Of a DNA stretch of 58,483 nucleotides, positions 14,363 through 35,719 are shown piece by piece (the stretch's first letter is position 1; each line of letters begins with the position of its first letter). The notes under the pieces were generated by a model. That model saw only the letters and a program-made list of their open reading frames with translations, was not told where the DNA came from and did no database searches. The position numbers and the translations under genes are program-made. Source of the stretch: Candidatus Sulfotelmatobacter sp. (GTDB lineage Bacteria > Acidobacteriota > Terriglobia > Terriglobales > Acidobacteriaceae); assembly GCA_030039195.1 (NCBI GenBank), contig JASHQK010000509.1:1-58483 (forward strand), read 5' to 3'.

Positions 14363-15100
14363 CTACTTTGCTTTGAATGTGAAATCCGCAGTGGCGGGTT
14401 TTCCTTCCGCAACCGTCACCTTTTGCGTTTGAGTTCCGTACGTTTCGTGCCACGCCGTCAGCGTGTATGTTCCCGGAGGTACATTTTCGAGTGTGAAAGC
14501 ACCGTTACCATCGCTGACCCCGTTTGGCCCCTTCACAACCGCGATAAAGGCATGCATCCAGGGATGGACATTGCACTTTACGGGAATCATTTCTTCCGCG
14601 GACCAGGTCACGTCGATTGCTGGTGCACCGACAATCTGAGACTTGTTAAATGCGGTGTTGCCACCCCCTGGCTTTGGGTCGGGGTGAATATTGTGCATGG
14701 TCTTGTCGTCGTTCACAATCGACAGGTGCTGGCCCGGATTCACAGCCACAACATGTGGAACATATTGGCAGCCCTTCTGCGCGAAGGTTACCGGCTGGGA
14801 GGCCACCGGGATTGGAGCGCTCAAGCCTTGGGAAATGTAAACCACAACATTCGCCAGAGCGCCGTTCGCTCCGACGACAACGTTCTCGCCGGCTGGTGAC
14901 GGCCCAGTGTGAGTTTGGGCGCAGGAAGGGTCCTTCGACATATCGATCGGCTTCTGGTGAGGAGCTTGGCCATCTAACTTAACGGTCCCGGCGATCTTTC
15001 CGGTCGCCGCCGCCCCCACAGCCGGCGTCAACCGAAACAAACCCGCGGCTGCCACCAGCAACGCAAGTGACACAGCCGCAACTCTGTAGTGAGCTTTCAT
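14363..15100 (-). CDS. Secreted amicyanin-like type-1 copper (cupredoxin) protein with CarboxypepD_reg-like beta-sandwich
   Basis: Signal peptide. His in MHNIH plus KCNVHPWM (C-x2-H-x2-M, as in the amicyanin CTPHPFM loop). C-terminal GNGAFTLENVPPGTYTLTAWHE. Paralog of 27381-27983. Confidence 0.7.
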   Translation of the reverse strand: MKAHYRVAAVSLALLVAAAGLFRLTPAVGAAATGKIAGTVKLDGQAPHQKPIDMSKDPSCAQTHTGPSPAGENVVVGANGALANVVVYISQGLSAPIPVASQPVTFAQKGCQYVPHVVAVNPGQHLSIVNDDKTMHNIHPDPKPGGGNTAFNKSQIVGAPAIDVTWSAEEMIPVKCNVHPWMHAFIAVVKGPNGVSDGNGAFTLENVPPGTYTLTAWHETYGTQTQKVTVAEGKPATADFTFKAK

Positions 15101-15199
15101 AACGCAATCTCTCCCTCAGACGAACTTTGATTTAAGTTCTTGAATGAACCCACGTGCTGAAAAGATGGCAGATATTGCGTCGAAGCGTGGCAGCATGTC

Positions 15200-15226
15200 T
15201 GTGATAGTAGTCACAGATCAGTGTGA
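15200..15226. promoter_or_regulatory. Tripartite CRP/FNR-family-type site TGTGA-TAGTAG-TCACA-GATCAG-TGTGA upstream of the cupredoxin/aa3 oxidase operon
   Basis: Perfect TGTGA-N6-TCACA plus a third half-site, 100-126 nt upstream of the start at 15100. Same 27-bp architecture at 56913-56939, 29590-29616 and 29732-29758. Confidence 0.55.
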
Positions 15227-20413: not shown

Positions 20414-21151
20414 TCAATTCTTCGAATAATGAGGCTCGCTATTTCGTGAGGGCGGATCGGCCACAGCGCGGATGTATGAGATCAGCGCCTGGATGTCGGT
20501 TTTGCTGAGGGTGTTTCCCCATGCCGGCATCAGGGCTGACTTATTGAGCGCCGGTCCACCGTAAGTGATGATCGCAGTGAGGTCCGCATCGGTCATTTTA
20601 TTCAGCGTGTCGCCCTCAGTGAATGGATGCGGCTTGACCTCCAGGTTGTCGTAGTTCGACACGCGCTCCACCGTTGATTCGGGATTATGGCAGCGATCAC
20701 AGTACTGATCGTTGAAACGGCGGCCGAGTGTCTGCTGATACCCGAGCGCGATTTCCTGGAGGGTGAGCTCGACTCTTTTATGGGATTTGTCGAAGGTAAA
20801 AGCGGTGAGCTGATAACGGCCTGCCATGCCCCCGAGAGACACGTTCGTAGTGAATTGGCCGCTGGAGTCGGTCAGTCCATACGCAGGATCGAATGTGACT
20901 CCGGGTGCGGCTTCGAGCTCGACCAGTGCCCCCGCGATTCCGTTGTTTTGATCGTCGTTCACTTGCACAACCACAGGCTGCGGCAACAGGCTGCCGGTCT
21001 GCGCCATCTGCTTGCCGCCGCTCGATTCCACGATGGCAGAGCCAAATACCGTAGGCTTGGGCAATGGCGCGGCGGCATTTTTATGCGAGCACGATGTCGC
21101 GAGAGAGGCCGCGATGATCGCGGCGAGCAAGCTCCAGGAGTAACGAGTCAT
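20414..21151 (-). CDS. Lipoprotein: Ig-like domain fused to monohaem class-I cytochrome c
   Basis: Start MTRYSW (ATGA overlap with the octahaem stop at 21148-21151). Lipobox LATSC. YCDRCH haem site and MPAW Met ligand region. Confidence 0.75.
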   Translation of the reverse strand: MTRYSWSLLAAIIAASLATSCSHKNAAAPLPKPTVFGSAIVESSGGKQMAQTGSLLPQPVVVQVNDDQNNGIAGALVELEAAPGVTFDPAYGLTDSSGQFTTNVSLGGMAGRYQLTAFTFDKSHKRVELTLQEIALGYQQTLGRRFNDQYCDRCHNPESTVERVSNYDNLEVKPHPFTEGDTLNKMTDADLTAIITYGGPALNKSALMPAWGNTLSKTDIQALISYIRAVADPPSRNSEPHYSKN

Positions 21152-23190
21152 TTCTTTCGAGCCCCCTGTTTTTCTCCTTTTTGGGAGATCAGGAATGCAG
21201 TGAGCGCGTGAGCGTCTTCCTCGCTCATGGCGCGGTTGGGTTCGATTGTGCCTGGCCTGAGAGCCTGGGGGTTTTTCATCCACGCGTAAATCCACGCCGC
21301 GGTGAGCCGCGAGCCGACATGGGTGAGCGTCGGGCCGATGTAGCCCTTGTCAGCCTTTGTGTCGACGATGTGGCAGCCTTGGCAGGAATATTTTCCATAG
21401 AAGAGCTGCTTGCCGAGTTCGATCTGCCCCTGCGAATAGCCGGTCAGCGGCATCGAGTCACGATCGATTGCGGGACTTTGATAAACGGTCATCATGTAAT
21501 CGGCGAGCTCGCTCGTCTCGGCGTCCGTCAGGTTGAAGCGCGGCATGCGCCGGATCAATGCCGGGCGCAACGTGTTCGGATTTTTCAGGAAATCCACGAG
21601 CCATTGCCGTTGCACCGAACTGCCCTCCCAGGTGAGATCAGGCGCCATGTCGCCGCCGTGGCCGTTGATGCGATGGCAACTGAAGCAGGCGAGATCGGTC
21701 ATGAGCTTGCCCGCTTTGCCGGCAGGCTGGTAATCCGACTCGGGCACAGCTGGAACTGTAAACGATGGCGGCAACGTCTTCGAGCGTTCATTCAACGCGA
21801 GCAGCGCGGTCGTGAGCGCATCAATTTGCGCCGGTGTGAAGGTGTACTGTGGCATCTTCAGTCCCGGCGAAAATGCCCGCGGCTCCTTGATCTTCCCGGC
21901 GATGTAATCCGGAAGCGTGTGCGGCATTCCGGGCAGGAAGAGCAGTTGCGTGATGGGCTTGCTCCCGATGCGGCTTAGTTCGGGAGCAAAGTTTTCCGGC
22001 TTCTTGATGCCCGCAATTTCGTGGCACGACGCGCAACCATAATCCGACACCAGGCGCTTGCCATGCGCGATCTGGTCGGGTGTTCCCTGATCGAGATGGA
22101 CATTGCTCAGGAGGTCGGAGTCACTCTTTGCCTCGAGAAATCCAGCCAGGGTCGCGACCTGAGCGTCGTTGAAGCGATAGTGCGGCATCGCGGTCCCGGG
22201 GTCATATGTGCGCGGATTCTTCAGCCAGCCCTGCAACCACTCTGGTTTCACCTTGCTGCCGATCCGCGTCAGTTCCGGACCCACGTCGCCGCCGACTACA
22301 TTTCCCGCTGCATTCTGCACGGCGTGGCAAGAAGCGCAGAAGGATTCTCCGTAAAGGCTAGGGCCGGCGGTCGGATCGGAGGACACTTTCGTAGAGACTG
22401 TCACCGAATCTCCCGTAACCGGTGTGCTGTTGGCGATTAGAAAGGACGACATGTCGCGAGCATCGCCGTCGCTGAGCTTGAAATTCGGCATCGTTGAGGT
22501 CGCCGCGTAAGCTTGCGGATCTTTCAACCAGGCATAAATCCATTCGCGCGTGGTCTTGTCGGCAATGTGCGAGAGCGACGGCGGATCGTCGGTTGCCTTC
22601 ATCGTCGTACCGTCAGGCAACTTCACGGAGTGGCAGTTCACGCAGCCATAACGGGCGAGCATGGTGCGTCCTTGATTCAGAACCGGAGTGCCCATCAGCG
22701 AATTGCGGTGACATTCCCCGCACGAAGATTCGATGTACTTTGCCGGAAGGATCGGCTGCTCCCACGCCAGGGTGCTGTTGTGCGCTTCGGAGACGGTGGT
22801 CGCGGCGCCCTGTCCACGATGACAAACCGTGCAGCCGAAGTCATCGAGCTTGTGCGGAATCACAGGATGCGGCCGGAACGGCTGCGTGGAAACGTCAGTG
22901 AGGCTGACTTCTTTCAGCGCGACGTGGCAACTGGTGCAGCGGTCGACCACACCCAGATCCGGCAGCCAGATCTGTTGGATTCCACCCTTGAAATGTCGCT
23001 GCAGCGTGTTCGCTTCGCTGCGGTTGCGAATCATCTTCAGATAGCCGTGCTGGTAATGGCGCCACTCGCTGAAATGATTCTTGGCCGGAGCGATGGCCAG
23101 CGAGACGAGGAAGATCAGGCTGACCACGCCAAAAGCGCGAACGCCGTCGCCGAAGAGCGTTTGCCAAAGCAACCCGAAGTTTGCTTTCAT
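21148..23190 (-). CDS. Membrane-anchored octahaem cytochrome c
   Basis: N-terminal TM. Eight CXXCH: CTSCH, CTVCH, CGECH, CVNCH, CASCH, CASCH, CFSCH, CQGCH. Confidence 0.85.
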   Translation of the reverse strand: MKANFGLLWQTLFGDGVRAFGVVSLIFLVSLAIAPAKNHFSEWRHYQHGYLKMIRNRSEANTLQRHFKGGIQQIWLPDLGVVDRCTSCHVALKEVSLTDVSTQPFRPHPVIPHKLDDFGCTVCHRGQGAATTVSEAHNSTLAWEQPILPAKYIESSCGECHRNSLMGTPVLNQGRTMLARYGCVNCHSVKLPDGTTMKATDDPPSLSHIADKTTREWIYAWLKDPQAYAATSTMPNFKLSDGDARDMSSFLIANSTPVTGDSVTVSTKVSSDPTAGPSLYGESFCASCHAVQNAAGNVVGGDVGPELTRIGSKVKPEWLQGWLKNPRTYDPGTAMPHYRFNDAQVATLAGFLEAKSDSDLLSNVHLDQGTPDQIAHGKRLVSDYGCASCHEIAGIKKPENFAPELSRIGSKPITQLLFLPGMPHTLPDYIAGKIKEPRAFSPGLKMPQYTFTPAQIDALTTALLALNERSKTLPPSFTVPAVPESDYQPAGKAGKLMTDLACFSCHRINGHGGDMAPDLTWEGSSVQRQWLVDFLKNPNTLRPALIRRMPRFNLTDAETSELADYMMTVYQSPAIDRDSMPLTGYSQGQIELGKQLFYGKYSCQGCHIVDTKADKGYIGPTLTHVGSRLTAAWIYAWMKNPQALRPGTIEPNRAMSEEDAHALTAFLISQKGEKQGARKK

Positions 23191-23209
23191 GAGCGTCGCA
23201 TCCTCGTCG

Positions 23210-23917
23210 TTATGATCCCTGCCAAGGCCAGATCCAGGACCAGCCCGGCCCGCGGAAGAATGTGCCCACGGCGGTGAGCACGACCAACTCGAATAAGAAC
23301 CATGTCATGATCCAGTAAGAAAGCGGTCTTGTCGCCAGATAGCAGCGAAAGGCTGAAGAAGATCTCGGCGAACTCTGCGATGCGACGAGCATCAGCGCGG
23401 CCATGATGAGCGTCGGAACTAAGGCCACGATCACATGAAACCACCCGAGAAAAATCGAGAGCACGACCGAGACGAGATAGACCACGCGCAATCGCCGCTC
23501 GCGGTCTTTGAGAAAGAACCCATCCGCTTCGATATTGACCTTGAAGTAGGGAATAACGACTAATGCCATCACCACGAGTCCCGGGACTAATACGCCGGCG
23601 ACGACCGGCGGAAAGTAGTGCAGCATCTCCTGCAGGCCGAGAAAATACCAGGGCGCCTTTGCTGGATTGGGCGTATGCGAAGGATCGGCCAGGCCTTCCA
23701 GCGGAGCGTTGAACATAAGTGCGATCCAGACGAGCACTGTTGACAACGTCATGATTGCCACGGCCGCGCGGAACAGCACTTCGGGAAACGTCTGAACTTG
23801 CTCTTCGGTTTCCGCTTTCACCTGCGCCGAAGTGCGTCTGGTAACAAAAACTATGCGGCGCGGAGAGCGCTTTGCGTTGGAGTCGACGGCGGCGACGAAG
23901 TCTTTCGCATCAGCCAT
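23210..23917 (-). CDS. Cytochrome b C-terminal-domain protein (b6f subunit IV-like)
   Basis: [21 protein letters not shown] (PEWY-type motif). Start MADAKD at 23917 preceded by AAGGAGGG; 8-nt overlap with the cyt b stop. Confidence 0.8.
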
Positions 23918-24764
23918 GGTTAATCGCCCTCCTTGGTCCCAACTGGGGTGCCCCACTTCTCGCTACTTTTGCGGGAAGTGGAAGCACGTCTGATAGTTCG
24001 TGTTCGGTCTGCGCTCGCGCCACAGTCGGTTCGCTGGAATGGGAATACAGACCCCCATCTTTGCGAATGCGCCAGAAATGAATCGCAATGAAAAACATGG
24101 CCGTCAAGGGCAGGATCATGCAGTGCAACACATAGAAGCGCAGCAGCGCGTTTGCATTCACGGCATGGCCGCCCAGCAAAAGAAAGCGAATCTTGTCTCC
24201 CATCAGCGGAACCGCCGAGGCGATGTTCGAGCCGACCGTGATCGCCCAGTAGGCCAGTTGATCCCAGGGCAGCAGGTATCCCGTGTAACTGAGCAGCAGC
24301 GTGACAAGAAGAAGGACGACGCCGATCACCCAATTAAATTCGCGCGGAGTTCGATAAGCTCCGCGGTAAAAAACTTTGAACATGTGGGCGAAGACGAGAA
24401 ATACCATAGCGTGCGCGGACCAACGGTGCAGATTCCGGAGAAACAATCCCGAAGAGACGACGAATTGGAGATCTTTCGTGTCGGCATACGCCTGCGGAAC
24501 GGAGGGATGGTAATAAAGCATGAGCGGAATTCCAGTCGCGACCAGCAACAGGAAAGTGCCGAGAGTCAGGGTGCCGAGATACCAGGTCGCGCTGAAACCG
24601 AGCATGCGCGTGCGCACCTTGGTCGAGAACAGGTGCAGGAACACGTTCTGCTGGATCGCGAGCGAGCGCTTGAGCGTGCTCGATCCGGTGCCGCTGCGGA
24701 AGATCGAGCGCCAGACTCGGGTCTCGCGCAGATCGTCAAAATATTGGTCCACAGTTTTCGCCAT
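23910..24764 (-). CDS. Cytochrome b (b6-like N-terminal four-helix part)
   Basis: [28 protein letters not shown], conserved His pairs. Confidence 0.9.
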
Positions 24765-24765
24765 G

Positions 24766-25272
24766 TCAGATCCTCACGAAGGAATCTCGCGCGAGCGGAG
24801 GCACGTCGGTTGAGCGATCCACGAGTAGATCGCCGTCGTCATTGAGCCAGATGCGTTTCCAGGGAAGCGGCTTGGGCGCGGGGCCTTCAATCTTGTCTCC
24901 CGGCTTGCGTCCGTCTTGCTGGAAAGCGAAAAACTTGCTGCCATGGCATGGGCACGCGATGATGCCTTGCTCAGGCTTCCACGCCGTCAGGCAGCCGAGA
25001 TGCGTGCAGACTGCGCTCAGAGAGAAGAAACCTTCTTGTGAGTGAATGATGTAAATACCCGTTGTGACGTCGAGCGTGACTGAGTCGAGCGGATAGCGAT
25101 CCGGCTTGCCCGCATTGACCACGGGCGACGGCTCGTACAGGACGTTGGGCTCAAGATACTGGTAAGCAAATGCCGCTGTGCCGGCGGCAGCGATGCCCAG
25201 AGAACCGAGTCCGAGTTTTGCGAAGAACTGCCGGCGGCTAACGTCGTCTGTCTTTTTTGTCTCTTCTGCCAT
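24766..25272 (-). CDS. Rieske 2Fe-2S subunit with Tat signal
   Basis: [15 protein letters not shown] twin-arginine motif. CTHLGC...CPCHGSKF cluster ligands. An alternative upstream start at 25317 is possible. Confidence 0.9.
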
Positions 25273-25335
25273 AAAAGCCTTGGGGCCCCACGGTAAATGT
25301 CGCGCGCTTGGCGACATTCAGGGTGGTGATCTGAT

Positions 25336-27303
25336 TTACTTTTGCAATCCCGCGCCGATCGATGCGACCGAGATCAAGCCGGTCGGCTCAGCGGGAAGCA
25401 GGTTGTACGACTCCATCGTGATGGTGCCAACTGGACAACGCATGGCACACAAGCCGCAGCGAATGCAGCGCGTTTCATCCTTTAACATCGCCGATCCTGT
25501 CACGATTCCGAGTTCGTCTGCGGCGACTTCGTCGAGCTCCACGCCGAAGCACTCCTGGTTCTCGCTAATGTGCTTGACGGTTTCCAGATCGAAGGCAATC
25601 CGATCCAGCGAAACGAGCTCAAGACATTTTTCCGGGCAAACATCGACGCAGCCGCCGCAGAGGATGCACATGCTGCCATCTTCCGGAACACCTTCGAAGA
25701 CCGTATTGACCCAGCAGTGCAGGCAGCGCTGTGCCTCGGCTATGGCCGACTTCGCGTCGTAACCGATCTCGACTTCGGTCACGCCGGTGCGGCGCTCCAG
25801 AGGAAGCATCCGAACCGGTTGACGGTTGAGATCGAGGTACCCGAGTGGCATGGCATGCCGTTTGAGTAGCTCGACTTCGATAACCGGCTCCGGATGCTTA
25901 CCGCCGCTCAGATACTCGTCAATTCCGACAGCAGCACGCTTGCCGTCGCCAACGCTGTCGATAATCAAGCGCGGTCCAAACACGCAATCACCGCCGGCGA
26001 AAATTCCGGGGGTGGAAGTCATCAGCGTTTGTGGATTAACGGCGATCAGGCCGCGCGGAGAAAGTTCGACTTTGTCTTCCGGAGTGAAAAAGTCGAGGCG
26101 CGGTGCTTGGCCGATCGCCATGATGATCGTGTCACAGTTGATCTGGCTCTCGCTACCTTCATAAAAAGCGGGATTGAAACGCCGGTTCTGGTCGAAGACC
26201 CACTTCGTCTTGAGAGTCTCGAGAGCGCTGACTTTTCCGTCCTTACCCACGATTCGCTTCGGCCCGAATCCGGGATAAATGATGATGCCCTCTTCTTCTG
26301 CTTCCTCGATTTCTTCGAGTGCGGCGGGCATTTCGTTGCGCCGTTCCAGGCAAACAAGATTCACCTCGCGCGCGCCCATGCGCAACGCGGAGAGCGAGAT
26401 GTCAACCATCTCCTTGGTCGCGACCGCGGAAACGTTCTCAGCCGAGGGCTCGACATCCTGAATTCCGCTCGCGTGCTGGCGAACGACTTCGCGAGCCGCG
26501 GAACGCGCAACGTCCATGGCAACATTGCCGCCGCCGATCACGATGACTTTCTTCCCGATCGTGAACTTGTAGCCGAGATTCACGTTCAGCAGAAAATCGA
26601 TTCCTTTATGCACTCCGTCGAGATCTACGCCAGGAATGCTGAGATCGCGGCTGCGGTGCGCGCCGACCGCGATCAGCACCGCGTCAAAGCCCTGCCGGCG
26701 CAATTCGGAGATGGTGAAGTCGCGGCCTGCAGCATGATTCAGCTTGAGCGTGATATCTCCGGTCTCGAGAATCTCTCGGACTTGCGCTTCCACGACATCT
26801 CTCGGCAAGCGATATTCGGGAATGCCGAGGTACAACATGCCGCCCGCTACGGGAGCGGCTTCAAAGAGCGTGACCGAATAGCCCATCAACGCCAGATCAT
26901 GCGCCGCTGAAAGCCCGACCGGACCCGCTCCCACGACTGCGACCTTATATGGAAGTTTCGCCTGTGAACGCCTTTCCGTGATGCTGATGGGATGCTTCGA
27001 TTCCGGCCCGAATTGCTCGGTCAGGAAGCGCTTGAGGGCGCGAATGGAGATCGGCTTGTCGATCTCTCCACGGCGGCAAGCGGTCTCGCATGGATGCGCA
27101 CACACTCGGCCGCAGATACTCGCCAGCGGATTGGGATCACGCGCCAGGCGATAGGCTTCCTCGAAGCGTCCTTCGGCAATCAGGCCAACATAGCGCCCGG
27201 CGTTGGTGTGCGCCGGGCAGGCCATCATGCAGGGGAAGTTCGTGTGCAACCAATCCGCGTCGACCTTCTTATCTCGAAACCGTTTCAGCATGGCGTCACT
27301 CAA
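25336..27303 (-). CDS. GltD-like (glutamate synthase small-subunit family) NAD(P)H-dependent FAD/FeS oxidoreductase with C-terminal 2x[4Fe-4S] ferredoxin domain
   Basis: N-terminal Cys clusters (CPAHT..., CGRVCAHPCETAC). Rossmann motifs VAVVGAGPVGLSAA and VIVIGGGNVAMD. C-terminal CILCGGCVDVCP and CIRCGLCAMRCP. Confidence 0.85.
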   Translation of the reverse strand: MSDAMLKRFRDKKVDADWLHTNFPCMMACPAHTNAGRYVGLIAEGRFEEAYRLARDPNPLASICGRVCAHPCETACRRGEIDKPISIRALKRFLTEQFGPESKHPISITERRSQAKLPYKVAVVGAGPVGLSAAHDLALMGYSVTLFEAAPVAGGMLYLGIPEYRLPRDVVEAQVREILETGDITLKLNHAAGRDFTISELRRQGFDAVLIAVGAHRSRDLSIPGVDLDGVHKGIDFLLNVNLGYKFTIGKKVIVIGGGNVAMDVARSAAREVVRQHASGIQDVEPSAENVSAVATKEMVDISLSALRMGAREVNLVCLERRNEMPAALEEIEEAEEEGIIIYPGFGPKRIVGKDGKVSALETLKTKWVFDQNRRFNPAFYEGSESQINCDTIIMAIGQAPRLDFFTPEDKVELSPRGLIAVNPQTLMTSTPGIFAGGDCVFGPRLIIDSVGDGKRAAVGIDEYLSGGKHPEPVIEVELLKRHAMPLGYLDLNRQPVRMLPLERRTGVTEVEIGYDAKSAIAEAQRCLHCWVNTVFEGVPEDGSMCILCGGCVDVCPEKCLELVSLDRIAFDLETVKHISENQECFGVELDEVAADELGIVTGSAMLKDETRCIRCGLCAMRCPVGTITMESYNLLPAEPTGLISVASIGAGLQK

Positions 27304-27330
27304 TTTTCAGGCCGAACAATAGCGACTCCG

Positions 27331-27372
27331 CTAGAAAGCAAAGAAGACGCGGGAGCGACTGCACGCTCCCGC
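27331..27372 (-). terminator. Intra-operon hairpin + U-rich tract after the cupredoxin gene (putative partial terminator/attenuator)
   Basis: Perfect 9-bp stem GCGGGAGCG-N6-CGCTCCCGC (27349-27372), followed on the minus strand by GTCTTCTTTGCTTTCT. Confidence 0.4.
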
Positions 27373-27380
27373 GCCGCGGA

Positions 27381-27983
27381 CTACTTCTTCAGAGTGAAAT
27401 CCGCTTTCGTGCTGCCCGAAACGGTTACCGGCTGCGATTGGTCTTTCGCACCTTCGTGCCATACGGTAACTGTGTAACTTCCGTCGGGGACATCTTTGAT
27501 CGTGTAATTGCCGCTATCGTCGGTCTCGGCAAAGTAGGGGGTGGGACTGACGATGATGTATCCCGACATATCAGGGTGCACATTGCAGAAAAGTGGCACG
27601 ACTCCGGCCTTGTCGAACGTGTAGGGACGCTTCTCGCCTTTCGGCCAGGTTCCGAGATTGTGGCCAGCTTTCTTGTCGTTACCGATCGCAGTCCAAAAGA
27701 CGTTGTGCTGCACATTGTCGCTGTTCAGGAACTCAACGGTCGTCCCTTGCTGCACCGCCATAATGTGCGGCACGAACAGCAGTCCCTTTTGATCCATTAC
27801 TGGGTGGTCCTTCGGAGCGGGGAAAGTCTTGCCGGCAATCGCATCTACATAGACGACCGACTTTCCCTTCATACCAGTAACCTTGCCCTCGATGTCTCCT
27901 GCCGATGCCGCGATGCATAATGCACTGATCATCAACATCACAACGCACGCATTTCGTCTCATTTGCCTTGTTCTCCTTTGCAT
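27381..27983 (-). CDS. Secreted amicyanin-like cupredoxin with CarboxypepD_reg-like domain (paralog of 14363-15100)
   Basis: Signal peptide; His in VQHNVFW plus FCNVHPDM (C-x2-H-x2-M); C-terminal DSGNYTIKDVPDGSYTVTVWHE. Confidence 0.7.
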   Translation of the reverse strand: MQRRTRQMRRNACVVMLMISALCIAASAGDIEGKVTGMKGKSVVYVDAIAGKTFPAPKDHPVMDQKGLLFVPHIMAVQQGTTVEFLNSDNVQHNVFWTAIGNDKKAGHNLGTWPKGEKRPYTFDKAGVVPLFCNVHPDMSGYIIVSPTPYFAETDDSGNYTIKDVPDGSYTVTVWHEGAKDQSQPVTVSGSTKADFTLKK

Positions 27984-28009
27984 TTCCGAATCATTCGTCT
28001 GGAGTCGCG

Positions 28010-29407
28010 CTAAAAAATGACCTTTGCGTCCAGGTAAATCGTGTTGTTAGAGCTCGCATTGCGGCCCGCGCTGTCGTAATTATTCTGGGCACCGTTGAAG
28101 CGCGTATACGCCGTGTACTGCGCGGCGAGCTGCAGATTCTGCCATGGCCAATAGGAAACGTTTGCGATCAAGCCTGCGCCTCTTGGATCGCCATTGAAAT
28201 TACCGGTCACCGGAGCGGACGGATAGAGAAGGAGGTCAGAAGTGCCAGTGGTATTGAACCAACCCAGCGTCCCCGTATATTTGTTTCCCAAGTGATATTC
28301 GGCATTGGCCATCACCGTGTTCAAACGGTGTGATCCTTGCGACACTAGACCCTGAAAAAGACTACTGAGCAGATCGTTGTTCTCCCGGATGTAGGTCGCC
28401 CGAAAGGATAGAACGTCTGTTCGAAACAGGGTCCTGTCGATCTGCGTGTCCACGCCCCAATCAGTGTAGGAATCCGTCGGAATGCTTGCGCCGGTTGTGG
28501 CGGTGATTTCGTTGGGAGTCGAACGCAGGTGCATGCCATAGGTACCGACTTCATACTGAGTCTTGCCTGTCAGTTCCTGCCATGCAAAACGCCAATAGGG
28601 CGCAACACCGCGAATGTTATGGGTGAAGCCAACTCCTGGATTCGGCTGCGGTCCACCCACATGCTCCGAGCGGTAAACCGCCGCATCCAGGTAGAAATGT
28701 GTGTCCCACATGGCGTAGCCGCCAAATCCCGCGACATCCTGGGCCAAAGGACCGTTAATAATCGCCGCGGCGTTAGGCGTGGGCGCAAAATCGCTAACGA
28801 TCCAAGGGAAACCCCATGCCGGAGTACTGTTCCACAGATCCTCTACACTGGGATTGTTGTTGAGGTCGAGGCCGTAAACCAGTTCTTTGCCTCCCCAAGT
28901 CGTCTTGTTGGCAGCCCGAATATCCGTGTTGTCACTGGTGAAATGATCGTCCCTGGTGTCATAGGTCACTTGGAGGAAGCTTCCGACGTGGCTTGTCCAT
29001 GCCCCGGATAGAAACAGCGATACGTCCTGAGGAAACTCGAAGTTCCCGTTCTGTGTGTTTGTTGAGGGAGTAGTGCTAGTATTTGGCACCGGGGACTTCA
29101 CCGATGTGAACGAAGTCTCAAGCATCACGGACAGCGGCAGCGATGCGAGCAGGTCGAGTGCGGCACGCTTTTTTCCGCCGTCGGCCGTTACGACCTTGGT
29201 CTCGTCGGCTCGATCCACATAACCCAGCAGCTTGAATCTGCGCCCGGCTGGATTGAGTTCCGGAGGAGCGTAGTGACAGCCGCTACATGGCAAACCTGTC
29301 TGTCGTGCATAGCTCGGCACCGCCTCAACCTTGGGCGGACTCATCACGCCCAACACAGGAACTGCAACAACCAGAAAAATCCCAAGTGTTTTCATTTGTA
29401 TCCTCAT
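28010..29407 (-). CDS. Outer-membrane beta-barrel protein with N-terminal monohaem domain (Cyc2-like fused cytochrome-porin)
   Basis: Signal peptide, then PSYARQTGLPCSGCHYAPPELNPAGRRFKLLGY (single CXXCH at residues 41-45, followed by P-x-L). About 400 aa of alternating beta-strand-like sequence rich in G/Y/T/N. C-terminal ...YLDAKVIF ends in the aromatic OMP signature. Confidence 0.6.
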   Translation of the reverse strand: MRIQMKTLGIFLVVAVPVLGVMSPPKVEAVPSYARQTGLPCSGCHYAPPELNPAGRRFKLLGYVDRADETKVVTADGGKKRAALDLLASLPLSVMLETSFTSVKSPVPNTSTTPSTNTQNGNFEFPQDVSLFLSGAWTSHVGSFLQVTYDTRDDHFTSDNTDIRAANKTTWGGKELVYGLDLNNNPSVEDLWNSTPAWGFPWIVSDFAPTPNAAAIINGPLAQDVAGFGGYAMWDTHFYLDAAVYRSEHVGGPQPNPGVGFTHNIRGVAPYWRFAWQELTGKTQYEVGTYGMHLRSTPNEITATTGASIPTDSYTDWGVDTQIDRTLFRTDVLSFRATYIRENNDLLSSLFQGLVSQGSHRLNTVMANAEYHLGNKYTGTLGWFNTTGTSDLLLYPSAPVTGNFNGDPRGAGLIANVSYWPWQNLQLAAQYTAYTRFNGAQNNYDSAGRNASSNNTIYLDAKVIF

Positions 29408-29476
29408 TCCCCATCTCTGGTCTGCAATCAGAAATGCAGTGTTGCCTCATCTCCATGCTGAGCAGATGTTTTGCAT

Positions 29477-29492
29477 TGCGAACGCAGTTCCA
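29477..29492 (-). promoter_or_regulatory. Candidate sigma-54 (-24/-12) promoter for the cyc2-like operon
   Basis: Minus strand reads CTGGAAC-TGCGT-TCGCA, with GG and GC at the canonical 12-nt register. About 70 nt upstream of the ATG at 29407. Confidence 0.35.
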
Positions 29493-29589: not shown

Positions 29590-29616
29590 TCACATTTCGA
29601 CGTGATTTGAATCACA
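29590..29616. promoter_or_regulatory. Tripartite site TCACA-TTTCGA-CGTGA-TTTGAA-TCACA
   Basis: Same 5-6-5-6-5 architecture as 15200-15226 and 56913-56939 (opposite strand reads TGTGA-N6-TCACG-N6-TGTGA). Lies in the divergent cyc2-like/tetrahaem intergenic region. Confidence 0.5.
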
Positions 29617-29731: not shown

Positions 29732-29758
29732 TCACGGAGGGACGTGATCAAAGTCACG
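29732..29758. promoter_or_regulatory. Tripartite site TCACG-GAGGGA-CGTGA-TCAAAG-TCACG
   Basis: Fourth copy of the 27-bp architecture, 156 nt upstream of the tetrahaem cytochrome ATG. Confidence 0.5.
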
Positions 29759-29913
29759 ATTTCATTTTCCCGCGACTTAGACAGTTCTCGCTATTTTCTG
29801 TCGCAAGTTCGCAACAACGAGACATAGGAAGGCAGCCGAGAAAAATTTCCGGCTACTAGTCGTTTTCTGATAGTGACTCCATCTTGGCAGCTCAATACAC
29901 TGGCGTTTTTGTC

Positions 29914-30378
29914 ATGAAGCTGACCTGCACAACGCCACGAAGTCCAGTTCACAAAGGAAAGCTCGCTTCACCTAGCGGAGTATTGAATTGCGGGTGGATC
30001 CTCGCGCTACTGCCAGTACTGCTGTTGGGAAGTGTGCAAGTGGCGGCCGTCGACAGTCGGGGCGTTGAACATCCGGGCAGTATTCATGCGGATGACAATT
30101 GCTCTTCCTGTCACGCGGACAAGTCCAGAGGCAAATCAGTGCACTCGGCCATGGCGCTTCGGTGCACAGTCTGCCATCTGGCGGAGACTCAAGGTGACAT
30201 GACTACTTTGAGTTTGTTCATGCCAAAAACAAAGATCTGCTTTGCCTGCCATGAACAATCCCTGTCCGTACGAGAGCACCGTCCCGTCGCCCGGGGATTG
30301 TGCCTGGACTGTCACGATGCACATAGCAGCAGTCGCCGCAAATTGTTACGACAGCCAACCGATGCTTCCCGTAACTAA
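29914..30378 (+). CDS. Tetrahaem c-type cytochrome (c3/NrfB-like), membrane-anchored or secreted
   Basis: Start MKLTC; hydrophobic segment WILALLPVLLLGSVQVAA; four CXXCH (CSSCH, CTVCH, CFACH, CLDCH). Confidence 0.8.
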   Translation: MKLTCTTPRSPVHKGKLASPSGVLNCGWILALLPVLLLGSVQVAAVDSRGVEHPGSIHADDNCSSCHADKSRGKSVHSAMALRCTVCHLAETQGDMTTLSLFMPKTKICFACHEQSLSVREHRPVARGLCLDCHDAHSSSRRKLLRQPTDASRN

Positions 30379-30972: not shown

Positions 30973-32331
30973 CTAGTCACAAAGACCGTACTCGCGCAGC
31001 TTCCTGTACAAATTCCGCTCGCTGATTCCAAGAATCTTAGCTGCATTTCCGCGATGCCCCTTGCTGGCTTCTAGCGCCATTCGAATGTGAGCGAGTTCCA
31101 CTTCCTGGAGTGTCAGCTGCCGGGAGGCTTCTGAAACGGCCGTTGCCGGTGTCGTCTTTGTATTACGCAGGGAAGCAGGAAGGTGATCGGGTAGAACCTG
31201 AGATCCTTCGCAAAGCACGAGAGCAGCTTCCACCACATGCAGGAGTTCGCGTACGTTGCCTGGCCAGGAGTGTTGTCGGAGCAACTGCAGGGCCGCTTCG
31301 CTAATCCTTTTGTTAGAGCCGAATCGCTCGTTGAGCATGGTCGCGAAGTGTTGGGCCAGAAGAGACACATCATCGCCTCTTGCGCGCAGAGGTGGTATCT
31401 CCACCGTGATGGTGCTGAGGCGGTAGAACAAGTCCTCACGAAAAAGGCCCTGCCGCACCAAGACCGATACATCTCGATTTGTGGCGGCCAGGATGCGGAC
31501 GTCCACTCGAATTTCCCGCGTACTACCGACGTGGCGGAACGTGGAGGTGTCGAGCACGCGCAACAACTTCGTCTGCGTCGCCGGGCTCACCTCTCCGATC
31601 TCATCAAGGAAGATTGTTCCGCCGTTAGCGACTTCGAACAGGCCGGGTTTGGCTCGATCCGCTCCGGTAAACGCACCTCGCTCATGGCCAAACAATTCGC
31701 TTTGCAGCAGGCTCTCCTGCAGCGCGGCGCATTCGACAACTACGAACGGCCTTGACCGGCGAGGACTGCGGGCGTGGATCAACTTGGCGACTCGTTCTTT
31801 GCCCACGCCTGTCTCGCCGATAATAAGCACGGTCGACTCACTTGGGGCAACGCGGTCGATCAGATTGAGCAGACGCCGGAACTCTGGGCTGTCGCCGACG
31901 AAAGAATTGCTCAGATCCGGCGGAGTCAGGCCGCGCTCGAGAATTTTTGTTCTCTGGCGCAGAGATCGCCGCTCGATCGCTCGTTGTATGCGAACCTGAA
32001 GTTCGTCCAGCGGACAAGGCTTCACCACGTAGTCGCAAGCGCCAATGCGAATCGATTCGATGGCCGTGTCGATAGAACCATGTCCGGTGAACATAATCAC
32101 CTCGGTGGAAGCCGCGGCCGCCAGAATGGCTTTTAGCGTCTCCAGCCCGCCTATACCAGGTAAGCGCAGGTCCAGCAGCACGACTTCGGGTTCCAGCACT
32201 TCCACTCGCTCGATCGCTTCCTCACCCGTGCTCGCCGTGGAGGTTTCGTAACCGAGTCGACTCAATTCATCCGCCATCACTTGCCGGAAGGCAGAATCGT
32301 CATCGACCACGAGGAGAGACGGTGGTTTCAT
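30973..32331 (-). CDS. Sigma-54-dependent response regulator (NtrC family: REC + AAA+ + Fis-type HTH)
   Basis: Receiver domain (LLVVDDD...DLRLPG), Walker A GETGVGKE, GAFTGA sigma-54 contact motif, C-terminal HTH (GNAAKILGISERNLYRKL). Confidence 0.92.
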   Translation of the reverse strand: MKPPSLLVVDDDSAFRQVMADELSRLGYETSTASTGEEAIERVEVLEPEVVLLDLRLPGIGGLETLKAILAAAASTEVIMFTGHGSIDTAIESIRIGACDYVVKPCPLDELQVRIQRAIERRSLRQRTKILERGLTPPDLSNSFVGDSPEFRRLLNLIDRVAPSESTVLIIGETGVGKERVAKLIHARSPRRSRPFVVVECAALQESLLQSELFGHERGAFTGADRAKPGLFEVANGGTIFLDEIGEVSPATQTKLLRVLDTSTFRHVGSTREIRVDVRILAATNRDVSVLVRQGLFREDLFYRLSTITVEIPPLRARGDDVSLLAQHFATMLNERFGSNKRISEAALQLLRQHSWPGNVRELLHVVEAALVLCEGSQVLPDHLPASLRNTKTTPATAVSEASRQLTLQEVELAHIRMALEASKGHRGNAAKILGISERNLYRKLREYGLCD

Positions 32332-34238
32332 CTCTCGACCTTGAGTTGAGGGCTGGTATTGATTGCCGGCATCACGACTGTGAACGTAGACCCTTTACCG
32401 AGAGCACTTTCGACTGCGATGGTGCCTCCCCAACTCCGGACTGCGTTGAGCGACAAGAACAGGCCGAGACCTGTGCCCCCTTGGCGAAGACTGAAAAAAG
32501 GTTCGAAGATCTTTTGCTGGTACTCTGGCGCGATCCCGCAGCCTTCGTCAGTGACGCGAATGTGGATTGCGTCGCCGCCTTGGGTGGCGACGATAACCTT
32601 GGCCCCGGCCTTTGACGCCTGAATCGCGTTGAGCAGGAGATTGACGAGCAGGTTCTGTAGTTCGGCCTCGTCCGCTCGGACATGTAGCGTTGTCGTGCAG
32701 AACTGCACCTCAACGGTCACAGAAGCGGTGCGAGCCGTAGGCTCGACCAGCCTCCGAGCAGCAGCGATCGCGGCATTGAGATCCACGATTTCACCACCCG
32801 ATCGCTGTCCGCGGGAAAGGCGGAGAAAATGTTGCGTAATTCCCCTGCAGCGTAGAATCTGCTCGCGCGCGATCGCCGCCTGTTCAAGAATTCGAGCCTG
32901 ATCCTTGGGACAGTCCTGGCCGCCTTGAGTCTCACGAAGGATGCCTTCTACGCACATTAGGGTCGTTGCCAGGGGCGTGTTCATCTCATGGGAAAAGCCA
33001 GAAGCAAGTACCCCTACCGATGCTAAGCGGTAGGACTCCGCGAGTTTTGCCTCGGCCGCACGTCGGTCGGAGATGTCTCGCCAGACTTCCACGACTTGGG
33101 TTAGACGACCAGAGGCGTCCAAAATGGGCGAAGCATGAATTTCCTCCCATGCCACAGTGTTGTTCCCCGCTTTGCGTTCGCAGATCCGAACCTGACGCGC
33201 ACCGGCTTTCAGACATGCGAGCGTGGGACAATCGGACAAGTTGCACGGGCCTGGCTCCAGTTTGTAGCAGCTGCAGCCCAGAACTTGCTCACGAGAACTG
33301 TTGGCGCGCAGCAAGAATGCGTCATTGGCTGCAATGATCTTTCGTTCCCCGTCGAGTACTACAATCCCGTCATCAATACTGTTGATCACAGTTTCCAGCC
33401 GCTCCCGCTGAGTGCGGACTTCTCCCACCAGGTGGGACACAGAATCCGCCATTTCATTGAACTCTTTCGCGAGCCAGGACAGCGTATCAGAGCCTTCCGT
33501 GGGTACGCGGCGTTCGAGATCGCCTTGAGAGATCAGGCGCGCCGTGTTCTCAAAACGCTGGAGGCGACGCAATACCGCCACGCGGATCACCAATGCGATT
33601 GCTCCGACAATAACGAAGGTCAGCGCTCCAGTTCCGGCCACCATCCAGCGCAGGTCGCGGGTCATCGCCTCCCTGATCTCTCCGGCGTTGTAATCCAGAA
33701 TGAGGACGCCATTGATCTTCTGCTGTGGACTGTGGCAGCGCTGGCATTCCTGGCGGTTACGAATTGGCACTACAGTTCGAAGAATGGTTCCACCTTTCGT
33801 CTCGATTACCCGGCTCGAGCCACGGCGTTCTGGCGGATCACGATGGCAGGCTTGGCATGTGGGAGAGTCGATCCTGAACTCATTCTGGGTGACTCCCGGC
33901 TTACTCGAATAACGCTCTGTGCCATTGCGATCAATCACGACGAGCTGCTCCACACGAGATTGCTTGCCGAAGCTCTCGATCATCTGCGCGATCAGAGTGC
34001 GGTCATTGCTCATCATCTGATGTTCGAGCGCGGTGCGGATCAATTCGCTTTCGGCAAGCGCGCTAGTGCGGGCCGTGTCGAGGAGGCTGTGAAAATGACG
34101 GGTGGAAAAAACGTAGGCGGCAACTGTACAGGCTACTACCACCGCCACCGTGACACCGAGCGCGAGGCCAACGGTCATGCTGGCAAAACGCAGCTTCATG
34201 ATGACGGCACCAGGTCGGCGGGATGATGGCACATGCAC
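32328..34238 (-). CDS. Sensor histidine kinase with periplasmic domain carrying two CXXCH motifs, HAMP, Cys-rich PAS, HisKA/HATPase
   Basis: Two TMs flank a ~140-aa loop containing CQACH and CQRCH. PAS has GCSCYKLEPGPCNLSDCPTLAC. H-box FSHEMNTP. ATGA overlap with the response regulator gene. Confidence 0.9.
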   Translation of the reverse strand: MHVPSSRRPGAVIMKLRFASMTVGLALGVTVAVVVACTVAAYVFSTRHFHSLLDTARTSALAESELIRTALEHQMMSNDRTLIAQMIESFGKQSRVEQLVVIDRNGTERYSSKPGVTQNEFRIDSPTCQACHRDPPERRGSSRVIETKGGTILRTVVPIRNRQECQRCHSPQQKINGVLILDYNAGEIREAMTRDLRWMVAGTGALTFVIVGAIALVIRVAVLRRLQRFENTARLISQGDLERRVPTEGSDTLSWLAKEFNEMADSVSHLVGEVRTQRERLETVINSIDDGIVVLDGERKIIAANDAFLLRANSSREQVLGCSCYKLEPGPCNLSDCPTLACLKAGARQVRICERKAGNNTVAWEEIHASPILDASGRLTQVVEVWRDISDRRAAEAKLAESYRLASVGVLASGFSHEMNTPLATTLMCVEGILRETQGGQDCPKDQARILEQAAIAREQILRCRGITQHFLRLSRGQRSGGEIVDLNAAIAAARRLVEPTARTASVTVEVQFCTTTLHVRADEAELQNLLVNLLLNAIQASKAGAKVIVATQGGDAIHIRVTDEGCGIAPEYQQKIFEPFFSLRQGGTGLGLFLSLNAVRSWGGTIAVESALGKGSTFTVVMPAINTSPQLKVER

Positions 34239-34737: not shown

Positions 34738-35202
34738 ATGACACATGAACTTCTAAATGGTCTCTCTTCCGCCGAGGGCGAGCAGGTTTTGAAGCTCGGC
34801 CACAGAGTGATCGTCCCCAGCGAAGCAACGCTATTCCAGCTGGGAGATCAGGCCGATCGGCTCTTCCTGGTTGAACGCGGACGAATCAAGCTGACATTGC
34901 CAATGCAGGTGCGTAAGCGAGAACAGGATGTTTTTGTGGAGGAGAGAGGTCCCGGCCAGACCGTCGGCTGGTCAGCCTTGATTCCGCCTTATCGATTTAC
35001 CCTCACCGCGACCGCCGTTTTGCTCGACGCAGAAGTGATCGCCTTCCCACGGGAGGCGCTGCTCAGGTACTTTGCAGCCAATCCAGGAGCGGGACACAAG
35101 ATTGCTTTCAATCTTGCGGTCGTGATTGGACATCGCCTGCAACTGTTCCAGACGATGTGGCTGCGCGAGATGCAGCGCACGGTGGAAGTACGTTCCGCGT
35201 GA
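34738..35202 (+). CDS. Stand-alone cyclic-nucleotide-binding (cNMP/CAP effector) domain protein, no HTH
   Basis: LFQLGDQADRLFLVERGRIKL...GPGQTVGWSALI...; 154 aa, too short to include a DNA-binding domain. Confidence 0.8.
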   Translation: MTHELLNGLSSAEGEQVLKLGHRVIVPSEATLFQLGDQADRLFLVERGRIKLTLPMQVRKREQDVFVEERGPGQTVGWSALIPPYRFTLTATAVLLDAEVIAFPREALLRYFAANPGAGHKIAFNLAVVIGHRLQLFQTMWLREMQRTVEVRSA

Positions 35203-35218: not shown

Positions 35219-35719
35219 ATGCAAACGGTAAGCGAGACAACCCCCTCCGGCAGCAAACAACAAGGTGAACGCCTCGACCATTTCAACAGTACACGCCGCC
35301 GCGTCATTGAGTATTTTCTCGGTGGTGGCTTGTTGGCTTCGTTCGTTTCATTTCTCTACCCGGTGTTGCGCTACCTCATACCTCCTGCGGTAGCTGATCT
35401 TGGCGGTGACGAAATCGTCGCCGCCAAGATCGGCGAGCTAAAGCCGAATTCCGGCAAGATATTCCGATTCGGCAACCATCCTGGCTTGTTGATCCTAAAC
35501 AGCGATGGTACCTATCGTGCACTTTCCGCTACTTGTACCCACCTTGGCTGCACCGTGCAGTATCGCGCCGATCTTCGCCAGATCTGGTGTGCCTGCCACA
35601 ACGGAATCTACGATCTGAACGGTCGCAATGTTTCCGGTCCTCCGCCCAGACCGCTGGATGTGTTCGATGTCCACGCGCGCGGAGATGAGATTGTCGTCAG
35701 CAGAAAGCGGGAGGCGTGA
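35219..35719 (+). CDS. Rieske 2Fe-2S subunit (b6f/PetC-like)
   Basis: N-terminal TM; [10 protein letters not shown]...CACHNGIYD. Confidence 0.9.

Follow-up and report, generated by a model that had tools for sequence, protein, structure and literature searches.

A block of eight minus-strand genes (g1 to g8) in Candidatus Sulfotelmatobacter sp. is predicted to encode a redox module that spans the cell envelope of peat and soil Terriglobia and in which a Cyc2-family outer-membrane cytochrome-porin and a cupredoxin are joined to a Rieske/cytochrome b complex with its own iron-sulfur (FeS) subunit for nicotinamide and flavin adenine dinucleotides, NAD(P)H and FAD. The block lies on contig JASHQK010000509.1 of assembly GCA_030039195.1, of which positions 1-58,483 (forward strand) were analysed; this whole stretch is referred to as the window. 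We tentatively read the block as two linked sub-operons (g1-g2 and g3-g8) whose products may work as a cupredoxin hub fed by quinol bifurcation, a reading to which we give somewhat less than an even chance and for which we count the conserved synteny, a variant lineage, and the invariant ligands described below. The analysis provided gene content, family membership (from sequence and a structural model), ligand conservation, synteny, a hairpin, and an operator. The features of the block are as follows, with lengths in amino acids (aa):

28010-29395, minus strand: g1, Cyc2-family fused cytochrome-porin (predicted) with signal peptide, one CXXCH, a 16-strand outer-membrane barrel, and a C-terminal Phe
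27381-27983, minus strand: g2, periplasmic type-1 copper protein (plastocyanin/azurin-type) with a CarboxypepD_reg beta-sandwich
27346-27375, minus strand: hairpin after g2, GC-rich, terminator- or attenuator-like
25336-27291, minus strand: g3, cytoplasmic NAD(P)H-FAD iron-sulfur subunit of GltD/NfnB/DsrL-like architecture, about four FeS clusters, 651 aa
24766-25272, minus strand: g4, Rieske [2Fe-2S] subunit exported by twin-arginine translocation (Tat)
23910-24764, minus strand: g5, four-helix cytochrome b6-like subunit
23210-23917, minus strand: g6, subunit-IV-like membrane protein
21148-23190, minus strand: g7, membrane-anchored octahaem cytochrome c
20414-21151, minus strand: g8, lipoprotein with an Ig-like (Big_1) domain and one class-I haem c domain

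An earlier note on this DNA had described eight packed minus-strand genes, and all eight open reading frames (ORFs) were found at the positions it gave, spanning 20414-29395. The gaps that it quoted (26, 77, 18-63, 1, -8, 19, and -4 nucleotides [nt]) were recovered from the coordinates; the one qualification to the tight packing is that the g2-g3 spacer is always the largest and holds a conserved strong hairpin. Homologues fix the conserved start of g1 at the ATG at 29395 (461 aa), which replaces 29407; the conserved start of g3 is the ATG at 27291, which brings the g2-g3 gap to 89 nt, and the g4 start at 25272 is favoured by its Tat motif. Pfam and NCBIfam profile searches confirmed seven of the eight assignments (all but g1), and CXXCH motifs number 1/0/0/0/0/0/8/1 from g1 to g8, domain calls and haem counts that agree with the inventory of the earlier note. 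A simple hydropathy scan gave signal peptides for g1 and g2, neither a signal nor a transmembrane segment for g3, polytopic g5 and g6, a single N-terminal anchor for g7, and a lipoprotein signal ending in LATSC for g8. This predicted topology fits a path from the outer membrane to the cytoplasm.

Relatives of g1 occur in 301 species-representative genomes, and the best 80 of these were taken for synteny. All 80 are Terriglobia, mostly Ca. Sulfotelmatobacter metagenome-assembled genomes (MAGs) from peat and soil, and SbA1 (locus L012) is included; L050 is assigned to Terracidiphilus. Searches by tblastn with the window proteins recovered the complete order g1 to g8 in 74 of the 80 loci, most of the exceptions being cut contigs, while the genes that flank the block in the window almost never adjoin it in the other loci. 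Predicted ligands, i.e., those of the g2 copper, the Rieske Cys and His, the b-haem His, and every CXXCH, are invariant across 69-81 orthologues.

Two variant loci from another lineage (L083, 10001-17282, and L084, 10001-17294) encode a Cyc2 that is 48% identical, followed in order by a small protein (159-169 aa, with a BamE-like C-terminus), a monohaem c, a GltD-like protein (44%), a Rieske protein, a fused cytochrome b and subunit IV in which APWY is kept, and a pentahaem c. No cupredoxin is encoded at these loci, and the monohaem c, which is related to the g8 domain (34-38% identical to the g8 cytochrome domain), stands in its place. The linkage between Cyc2 and an NAD(P)-bearing complex thus recurs with a different soluble carrier, which argues that it is functional rather than accidental; this second lineage and the conserved synteny together uphold the functional connection between the two halves that the earlier note had drawn.

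Family membership of the eight proteins

The g1 protein gave no Pfam or NCBIfam match. Homologue searches returned 3304 proteins at E <= 0.001 among 8000 candidates (word-indexed search) and 2381 cluster-50 representatives at E <= 0.001 (exhaustive search). According to Keffer et al. 2021, Cyc2 proteins have a signal peptide, one CXXCH, the motif AXPXFAR[Q/K][T/Y] upstream of it, PXL four residues downstream, and a 16-strand porin similar to OprO/OprP, the whole protein being 365 aa or longer (PMC8406198); the upstream motif is stated to be unique to Cyc2 (PMC8406198). The N-terminus of g1 has a hydrophobic stretch ending in VEA and a mature start at VPSY, and its single CXXCH is found at residue 37 (461-aa numbering) and does not vary among 81 sequences. 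The haem region, near-invariant in 24 orthologues, reads VEA VPSYARQTGLP CSGCH YAP PEL NPAGRRFKLLGY. In g1 and all its close orthologues the upstream motif is AVPSYARQT, with Tyr in place of the published Phe, and the literal PXFAR is not matched; the canonical form, AVPSFARQTG..C..CH...PEL, is the consensus of the wider g1 family (32-49% identical to g1). Because Tyr replaces the motif Phe, a strict PXFAR screen such as the one behind the published tree would lose the whole Tyr clade, g1 included, which represents a gap in Cyc2 screens. The downstream PXL is present in g1 (CSGCH-YAP-PEL, with P45 and L47 invariant or nearly so), and its 461 aa compare with the published minimum of 365.

An AlphaFold (AF2) model of g1 built from 133 diverse sequences (predicted local distance difference test, pLDDT, 89.2; predicted template-modelling score, pTM, 0.87) has 16 strands and a small helical N-terminal haem domain. 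It supersedes a model built from 24 close homologues (pLDDT 38.6). Foldseek searches with the model returned outer-membrane porins exclusively, the top query TM-score being that of OprO (4rjw, 0.49), with OprP (2o4v) and PorB (3wi4) also found; the same porin folds have been published for Cyc2 and Cyt572 (PMC8406198). More distant g1 homologues, from Gammaproteobacteria and Acidiferrobacteraceae, are named "cytochrome C", and the cluster names of ten of them are "cytochrome C", "hypothetical protein", and, in one case, "cytochrome b561". Two distant homologues were examined, and each is followed by a c4-like cytochrome of ~210 aa, as in the classic cyc2-cyc1 arrangement. Among the matches listed, g1 is at most ~49% identical to non-Terriglobia homologues, and no experimentally tested protein is among them. 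On the published motif and architecture, as judged from sequence and model, we accept g1 as a Cyc2-family member belonging to a Tyr-variant clade; the earlier description of a "Cyc2-like" barrel protein is therefore borne out by the published motif (bar Phe to Tyr), length, and porin criteria. Every biochemically tested member of the family is an Fe(II) oxidase, and the family authors caution that divergent members may function otherwise (PMC8406198).

Three proteins are candidate periplasmic carriers. The g2 protein has the Pfam domains Copper-bind and CarboxypepD_reg and scores weakly against plastocyanin and amicyanin models. Its copper ligands (H93, C133, H136, and M139) are invariant in 79 orthologues and include a C-x2-H-x2-M loop, in keeping with the amicyanin-like cupredoxin proposed earlier. 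The g7 protein has one N-terminal transmembrane helix and eight CXXCH motifs, all invariant in 69 orthologues. Its N-terminal part is c3/c7-like multihaem, and after it come class-I domains in which Met residues are candidate ligands: MP motifs lie ~50 residues past haems 4-7, and a less typical Met lies past haem 8 (four to five class-I-type haems). A sequence search of the PDB gave no match for g7. The third carrier would be g8, through its single class-I haem c domain.

For g3 to g6, the closest relatives found belong to bacteria that oxidise ammonium anaerobically (anammox bacteria). The g3 protein combines Fer4_20, Pyr_redox_2, and a C-terminal 2x[4Fe-4S] region (Pfam/NCBIfam) in a GltD/Nfn-like arrangement, with NfnA, NfnI-L, and GltD as its top PDB matches; 20 of its 21 cysteines are invariant in orthologues and one is not conserved. 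The g4 protein contains the twin-arginine motif SRRQFF and the Rieske motifs CTHLGC...CPCHGS, and its best PDB matches are 9rk4 (E = 3e-20) and 9rk3 (2e-16), ahead of every b6f/bc1 Rieske protein (best b6f, 1e-12). These two entries are Kuste4569 (9rk4) and Kustd1480 (9rk3), the Rieske subunits of NAD(P) oxidoreductase-containing complexes of Kuenenia stuttgartiensis. The 9rk4 sequence was rebuilt from a printed alignment and used to find anammox homologues, which yielded a Kuenenia sp. locus (L086) with the gene order Rieske, NAD(P) oxidoreductase, cytochrome b, subunit IV, hexahaem c, and HAO-like protein. Against the L086 proteins the four subunits compare as follows:

g3 and NAD(P) oxidoreductase: 34.7% over 634 aa, E = 2e-102
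g4 and Rieske: 37.5%, E = 2e-31
g5 and cytochrome b: 50.2% over 251 aa, including a shared N-terminal extension, E = 1e-80
g6 and subunit IV: 39.5%, with an identical 14-residue quinol-site motif, E = 6e-26

This direct comparison substantiates the claim that the GltD-type module is of the type found in anammox Rieske/cytochrome b clusters. The multihaem subunits are less alike, with g7 26% identical to the Kuenenia sp. hexahaem c over its N-terminal 155 aa (E = 4e-9) and having extra class-I domains. All four haem-ligand His of g5 are invariant, as is APWY in g6, which matches the Cytochrom_B_C and ExtQ profiles. The cysteine for haem c_n is absent, as WYLGT in g5 aligns to YCLGG in b6 and to CMGG in Kuenenia; the L083 cytochrome b likewise lacks it. 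The window also encodes a second, conventional Rieske/cytochrome b cluster, and g5 is closer to the Kuenenia cytochrome b (50% over 251 aa) than to the cytochrome b of that cluster (44% over 160 aa); g4, too, is closer to the anammox Rieske than to the conventional Rieske of the window. Judging from these comparisons, the g3-g8 core is of a known kind that is still uncharacterised.

Transcription, operators and neighbouring operons

The hairpin in the g2-g3 spacer begins 5 nt past the g2 stop and has a 12-bp stem with 10 GC pairs and the tail TTCTTTGCTT; its predicted free energy (dG) in the window is -33.5 kcal/mol (z = -4.3). Hairpins with dG <= -15 follow g2 in 73 of 76 loci (median dG -23.6, median start 9 nt past the stop), although their sequences differ, and a T-rich tail follows in about one-third of loci. 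No other junction has a spacer as long as that between g2 and g3 (median 116 nt vs <=28 nt elsewhere). At two loci, L067 and L078, g1-g2 occurs without the g3-g8 complex. For example, at L067 (8626-11923, a Terriglobia MAG) a gene for a 412-aa c-type cytochrome is followed by the Cyc2-like and cupredoxin genes and then by an unrelated efflux system and kinase genes, and no Rieske/cytochrome b complex was found within 10 kb. Gene content at these loci indicates that g1-g2 is a separable module. The view that all eight genes form one transcription unit is hence weakened, as a conserved terminator-like hairpin divides g1-g2 from g3-g8 in 73 of 76 loci and g1-g2 stands alone in two genomes. From sequence, it is likely that read-through from a g1-g2 sub-operon is attenuated or that g3-g8 has a second promoter of its own.

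A promoter-like arrangement, TTGAC(G)-N18-TACAAA, was noticed in the g2-g3 spacer of at least 11 of the 76 loci (including L002, L003, L004, L025, L031, and L062), while the window spacer is without it. It sits 38 nt before g3 and ends ~8 nt before the g3 ATG, a distance at which the g3 transcript would be leaderless or near-leaderless.

Upstream of g1, and of two further operons in the window, are palindromic boxes of the CRP/FNR type:

29602-29615, no strand assigned: CRP/FNR-type palindromic box GTGATTTGAATCAC, ~210-220 nt upstream of the g1 ATG
29744-29757, no strand assigned: second CRP/FNR-type box, between g1 and a divergent tetrahaem gene, ~130 nt upstream of the plus-strand gene at 29884
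8726-15214 (including its box), minus strand: aa3-type cytochrome c oxidase operon encoding COX2, COX1, two COX3-like proteins, and haem O synthase (UbiA)
52700-56927 (including its box), minus strand: membrane-bound [NiFe] uptake hydrogenase operon encoding small and large subunits, cytochrome b, and a HyaD-type maturation protease

The 58-kb window holds six copies of GTGAY-N4-RTCAC (starting at 15201, 29602, 29744, 43384, 56914, and 58025) vs 0.19 expected, most of them 40-220 nt upstream of operon starts. The box at 15201-15214 lies ~100 nt upstream of the aa3 oxidase operon and that at 56914-56927 ~110 nt upstream of the [NiFe] hydrogenase operon; of the remaining two boxes, one is close to an OsmC gene and the other is near 43.4 kb. 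Across related genomes, 70 of 78 loci have a GTGA-N6-10-TCAC palindrome in the 400 nt that precede g1, vs 0.055 expected. The common box suggests that the Cyc2 block, the aa3 oxidase, and the uptake hydrogenase share a putative regulon. The oxidase operon is separate from the block, 5 kb away, and its first gene (14363-15100) is a paralogue of g2 (32% over 165 aa, E = 3e-23) that keeps CNVHPxM and has the same C-terminal domain.

Other regulatory features were also observed. A CRP/FNR gene lies directly upstream of one distant Cyc2 homologue, where it adjoins cytochrome bd and HemN genes. The region upstream of the Cyc2 block in the window (30973-34238, minus strand) encodes a sigma-54-dependent response regulator together with a PAS/HAMP histidine kinase; the same pair is found upstream in L083 (2948-6585) and L084 (6137-9693) and is rare in other Sulfotelmatobacter loci. 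A candidate sigma-54 promoter upstream of g1 (29477-29492, TGGAAC-N5-TCGCA) was rejected as a conserved feature: the window contains 44 two-mismatch matches vs 33 expected, and the loose pattern TGG-N11-GC occurs upstream of g1 in fewer than 12 of 77 related loci, in none of them at a conserved position.

The contig as a whole is a dense energy-metabolism region. The conventional Rieske/cytochrome b cluster, 6 kb from the block (35219-38050, plus strand), encodes a Rieske protein (166 aa), a fused cytochrome b (361 aa), and a DmsE-like cytochrome c with nine CXXCH motifs (422 aa), and is preceded by a gene for a stand-alone cyclic nucleotide (cNMP)-binding protein (34738-35202). Divergent from g1 is the gene for a tetrahaem c7/c3-type cytochrome with an N-terminal hydrophobic segment (29884-30378, plus strand), which adjoins g1 in five to six of 80 loci. 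Between the redox clusters, at 45551-50656 (minus strand), are acetate-kinase-like, phosphate acetyl/butyryl transferase, citrate synthase, and malate/lactate dehydrogenase genes.

Electron flow

From these results we infer the association of the subunits, their cofactor loading, every step of electron transfer, and the direction of flow in the following scheme. Menaquinol would be oxidised at a quinol site on the periplasmic side. One of its electrons would take a high-potential route from the Rieske cluster through the octahaem c and the monohaem c to a cupredoxin pool, and the other would pass through the two b haems to the FeS chain of g3 and on to FAD, where NAD(P)+ would be reduced. The cupredoxin pool would serve as a hub, drained by the neighbouring aa3 oxidase when O2 is available and exchanging electrons with dissolved Fe(II)/Fe(III) through Cyc2; this idea is put forward because a g2 paralogue heads the oxidase operon and because the Cyc2 block, the oxidase, and the hydrogenase have an operator in common. 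Under oxic conditions Fe(II) might thus feed the oxidase (Fe(II) to Cyc2 to cupredoxin to aa3), and under anoxic conditions Fe(III) might be the high-potential sink. A CRP/FNR-family regulator appears to switch on the module together with the oxidase and the uptake hydrogenase.

The bifurcation step follows a proposal made for Kuste4569-74 and Kustd1480-85, in which one quinol electron goes via the Rieske protein and a multihaem c to a high-potential acceptor and the other via b haems and four FeS clusters to FAD and NAD(P)+ (PMC12954380). Unusually high measured Rieske potentials support that proposal (PMC12954380). For the outer end of the path, a proposal for Acidithiobacillus has Cyc2 reducing Fe(III) as the terminal step, with electrons supplied through a bc complex and a cupredoxin, also with H2 and a [NiFe] hydrogenase as donor (PMC8790237). 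The fully specified version, in which the bifurcating complex sends one share of the menaquinol electrons to NAD(P)+ and the other to extracellular or dissolved Fe(III), via the cupredoxin and with Cyc2 as reductase, and Fe(II) is taken up with O2, is possible but in our judgement rather unlikely.

Several points weigh against the hub scheme. The Cyc2-family members tested so far oxidise Fe(II), and none is a reductase (PMC8406198); the anammox bifurcation mechanism is itself a proposal (PMC12954380). As g5 lacks the haem c_n cysteine, the route from b haem to FeS may differ from that in anammox bacteria, and g7 resembles the anammox multihaem subunit weakly. A dedicated NAD(P)H-generating complex is less obviously needed in a heterotroph. 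The hairpin after g2 would let the two halves be expressed separately, and L067 and L078 illustrate that they can exist separately. Finally, no helix-turn-helix (HTH) domain was detected in the cNMP-domain proteins of the window (34738-35202 and 44146-44820), and no regulator for the box was found in the window.

Energetics bear on the direction of flow. With standard potentials of about -70 mV for menaquinone and -320 mV for NAD(P)+, we estimate that forward bifurcation is favourable if the periplasmic partner lies above about +180 mV, a value that both Fe(III)/Fe(II) at pH 4-5 and O2 exceed. The forward reaction would therefore be favoured and Fe(II)-driven NAD(P)+ reduction via the complex disfavoured.

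That opposite direction is the one whose logic the earlier note had seen in the block: Cyc2 would oxidise Fe(II), and the cupredoxin and c haems would pass the electrons to a complex run backwards on proton-motive force, reducing menaquinone and NAD(P)+. The characterised Cyc2-family proteins, all Fe(II)-oxidising, agree with it (PMC8406198), as does the uphill branch of Acidithiobacillus, a bc complex whose operon also encodes the NAD-linked sdrA (PMC8790237). The closest genomes come from an Fe(II)-rich acidic fen, and an operator common to the block, the uptake hydrogenase, and the oxidase fits a lithotrophy regulon. However, at pH 4-5 the Fe(III)/Fe(II) couple is estimated from standard potentials to lie far above menaquinone and ~0.7-1 V above NAD(P)+, a span that, by this estimate, proton-motive force alone could not bridge in one membrane complex. 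Moreover, the mechanism proposed for the homologous complexes requires a periplasmic acceptor (PMC12954380), and the genome paper describes a heterotrophic, sulfur-respiring lifestyle. On balance we regard Fe(II)-driven reverse transport as improbable, if still a serious contender. It survives as one of two possible directions, although the homologous anammox mechanism needs a periplasmic sink and not a donor; the caution in the earlier note that direction cannot be read from sequence remains correct.

A further possibility is that the halves are two separate, co-regulated units, Cyc2 and the cupredoxin passing electrons directly to aa3 and g3-g8 being a specialised complex III that may or may not carry out NAD(P) chemistry and has no dedicated exchange with Cyc2. 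The conserved terminator-like hairpin and largest spacer between g2 and g3 would suit such an arrangement, as would the promoter-like TTGAC-N18-TACAAA before g3 in at least 11 of 76 loci, the occurrence of g1-g2 without g3-g8 in L067 and L078 (with a c-type cytochrome upstream in L067), the pairing of more distant Cyc2 homologues only with a c4-like cytochrome, and the cupredoxin paralogue encoded with the oxidase. Yet 74 of 80 species preserve the adjacency and order despite varying flanks, the Cyc2-GltD-Rieske/cytochrome b adjacency recurs in a lineage only 44-50% identical that has a different soluble carrier, and a conventional Rieske/cytochrome b cluster already lies 6 kb away, which argues for a special role of g3-g8. 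Separate units are accordingly a doubtful explanation.

Less probable again, and in our view very unlikely, is a module that works as described with a Cyc2-like protein whose partner is not iron; humic or quinone moieties, Mn, Cu, or sulfur species, abundant in peat, would then take its place. This would be in line with the caution of the family authors about divergent members (PMC8406198), with the Tyr in place of the motif Phe in the g1 clade, and with the distance of g1 from the listed non-Terriglobia homologues (identity at most ~49%, none experimentally tested). Nevertheless, the motif of the cytochrome domain shows no other departure, the barrel matches characterised iron oxidases in its 16 strands, and no positive evidence for another substrate was obtained. 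Chance co-location of the two halves was rejected on synteny.

Ca. Sulfotelmatobacter and related bacteria dominate in peatlands and have been described as lacking iron metabolism. The conserved Cyc2-type gene, present in 301 species-level genomes and thousands of metagenome proteins, could add a large, overlooked group to the iron cycle of peat, with its ties to carbon storage and methane emission. The paper describing the SbA genomes, for example, reports dissimilatory iron-metabolism genes as absent and lists only a "quinol-cytochrome-c reductase". Should bifurcation to Fe(III) take place, some of the most abundant bacteria in acidic peatlands would have an energy metabolism linked to iron that had so far gone unrecognised, brought about by a swapped periplasmic end-module of the anammox-type complex. 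NAD(P)-linked Rieske/cytochrome b complexes are, in addition, an open problem in bioenergetics that has been studied mainly in slow-growing anammox enrichments. The acidobacterial core has a different periplasmic partner (cupredoxin and Cyc2) and some relatives are cultivable, so it could provide an independent test of bifurcation to NAD(P)+.

Comparison with known systems

The inner part of the block is most similar to the Kuste4569-4574 ("R/b-3") and Kustd1480-1485 ("R/b-2") complexes of K. stuttgartiensis. Shared features are a split b6-like cytochrome b and subunit IV with an identical 14-residue motif, and an NAD(P)-FAD-FeS subunit that is homologous over its full length and has its gene inside the cluster. 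The octahaem g7 occupies a gene position equivalent to that of the Kuenenia multihaem c and might likewise replace cytochrome f or c1. Gene order differs, with the oxidoreductase gene first in the block, and the Kuenenia cytochrome b has a haem c_n cysteine (CxGG) where g5 has YLGT. The Kuenenia multihaem subunit is weakly similar to the octahaem g7, which has four to five class-I domains. Moreover, the Kuenenia clusters include an HAO-like octahaem enzyme that the block lacks, the periplasmic end of the block consisting instead of a monohaem lipoprotein, a cupredoxin, and a Cyc2-type outer-membrane protein. The hosts also differ, one being an anammox bacterium and the other an acidobacterial heterotroph without an anammoxosome.

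Related operons are known from other phyla. Nitrospina gracilis and Ca. Methylomirabilis oxyfera have b6-type Rieske/cytochrome b operons with an octahaem c, and the short cytochromes b of "subfamily G" (Dibrova et al.) adjoin NAD(P)-binding FeS oxidoreductases across phyla. These systems share with the block a split cytochrome b, an atypical octahaem c, and a recurrent large NAD(P)-binding FeS neighbour. However, the reports include no outer-membrane cytochrome-porin or cupredoxin, and Acidobacteria are unmentioned in the full text searched. Subfamily G is also described as retaining the CxGG motif for haem c_n, unlike g5.

At the outer end, the Cyc2/Cyt572 family (Cyc2 of A. ferrooxidans and of Mariprofundus ferrooxydans PV-1, Cyt572 of Leptospirillum) resembles g1 in its signal peptide and single N-terminal CXXCH, in AxPx[F/Y]ARQT upstream of the haem site and PxL four residues past it, in a length of ~460 residues, and in a 16-strand barrel resembling OprO, OprP, and PorB. 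The motif residue is Phe in the known proteins and Tyr throughout the g1 clade. The genomic partners differ as well, being cyc1 with an oxidase or alternative complex III in the Cyc2/Cyt572 systems and a cupredoxin with an NAD(P)-linked Rieske/cytochrome b complex in the block.

The likeness to the cyc2/rus and petI operons of Acidithiobacillus drawn in the earlier note extends to overall logic only. The rus operon (cyc2-cyc1-cox-rus) and the petI operon (cycA-sdrA-petABC) of A. ferrooxidans share with the block an outer-membrane Cyc2, a periplasmic cupredoxin, and a branch to aa3 and to a Rieske/cytochrome b complex. An NAD-linked protein is likewise encoded with the bc genes there, and use of the chain in reverse for Fe(III) reduction has been proposed (PMC8790237). 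The complex of the block is b6-type with an octahaem c, whereas that of petI is a bc1 with cytochrome c1, and the NAD(P) module is a 651-aa FAD/FeS protein where petI has the short-chain dehydrogenase sdrA. Copper binding differs too, the site in the block being amicyanin-like (C-x2-H-x2-M) and that in Acidithiobacillus belonging to rusticyanin, whose ligand loops are longer. Dihaem c4 carriers (Cyc1/CycA1 in Acidithiobacillus) are absent from the block, and, unlike in the rus operon, the oxidase is encoded in a separate operon with its own cupredoxin paralogue.

The earlier note had known of no characterised system with this composition, and we found no description of one in the open-access literature on Cyc2 in Acidobacteria or Sulfotelmatobacter, or on Cyc2 with Rieske proteins or cupredoxins. 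That literature yielded metagenome surveys that tally cyc2 in Acidobacteriota and one remark that Cyt572 clusters with Acidobacteria homologues, and none of it describes the block, which is apparently undescribed so far. Each of its modules is of a known kind; what appears to be new, on sequence evidence, is their conserved coupling, the cupredoxin and monohaem lipoprotein as linkers, the loss of haem c_n, and the host group.

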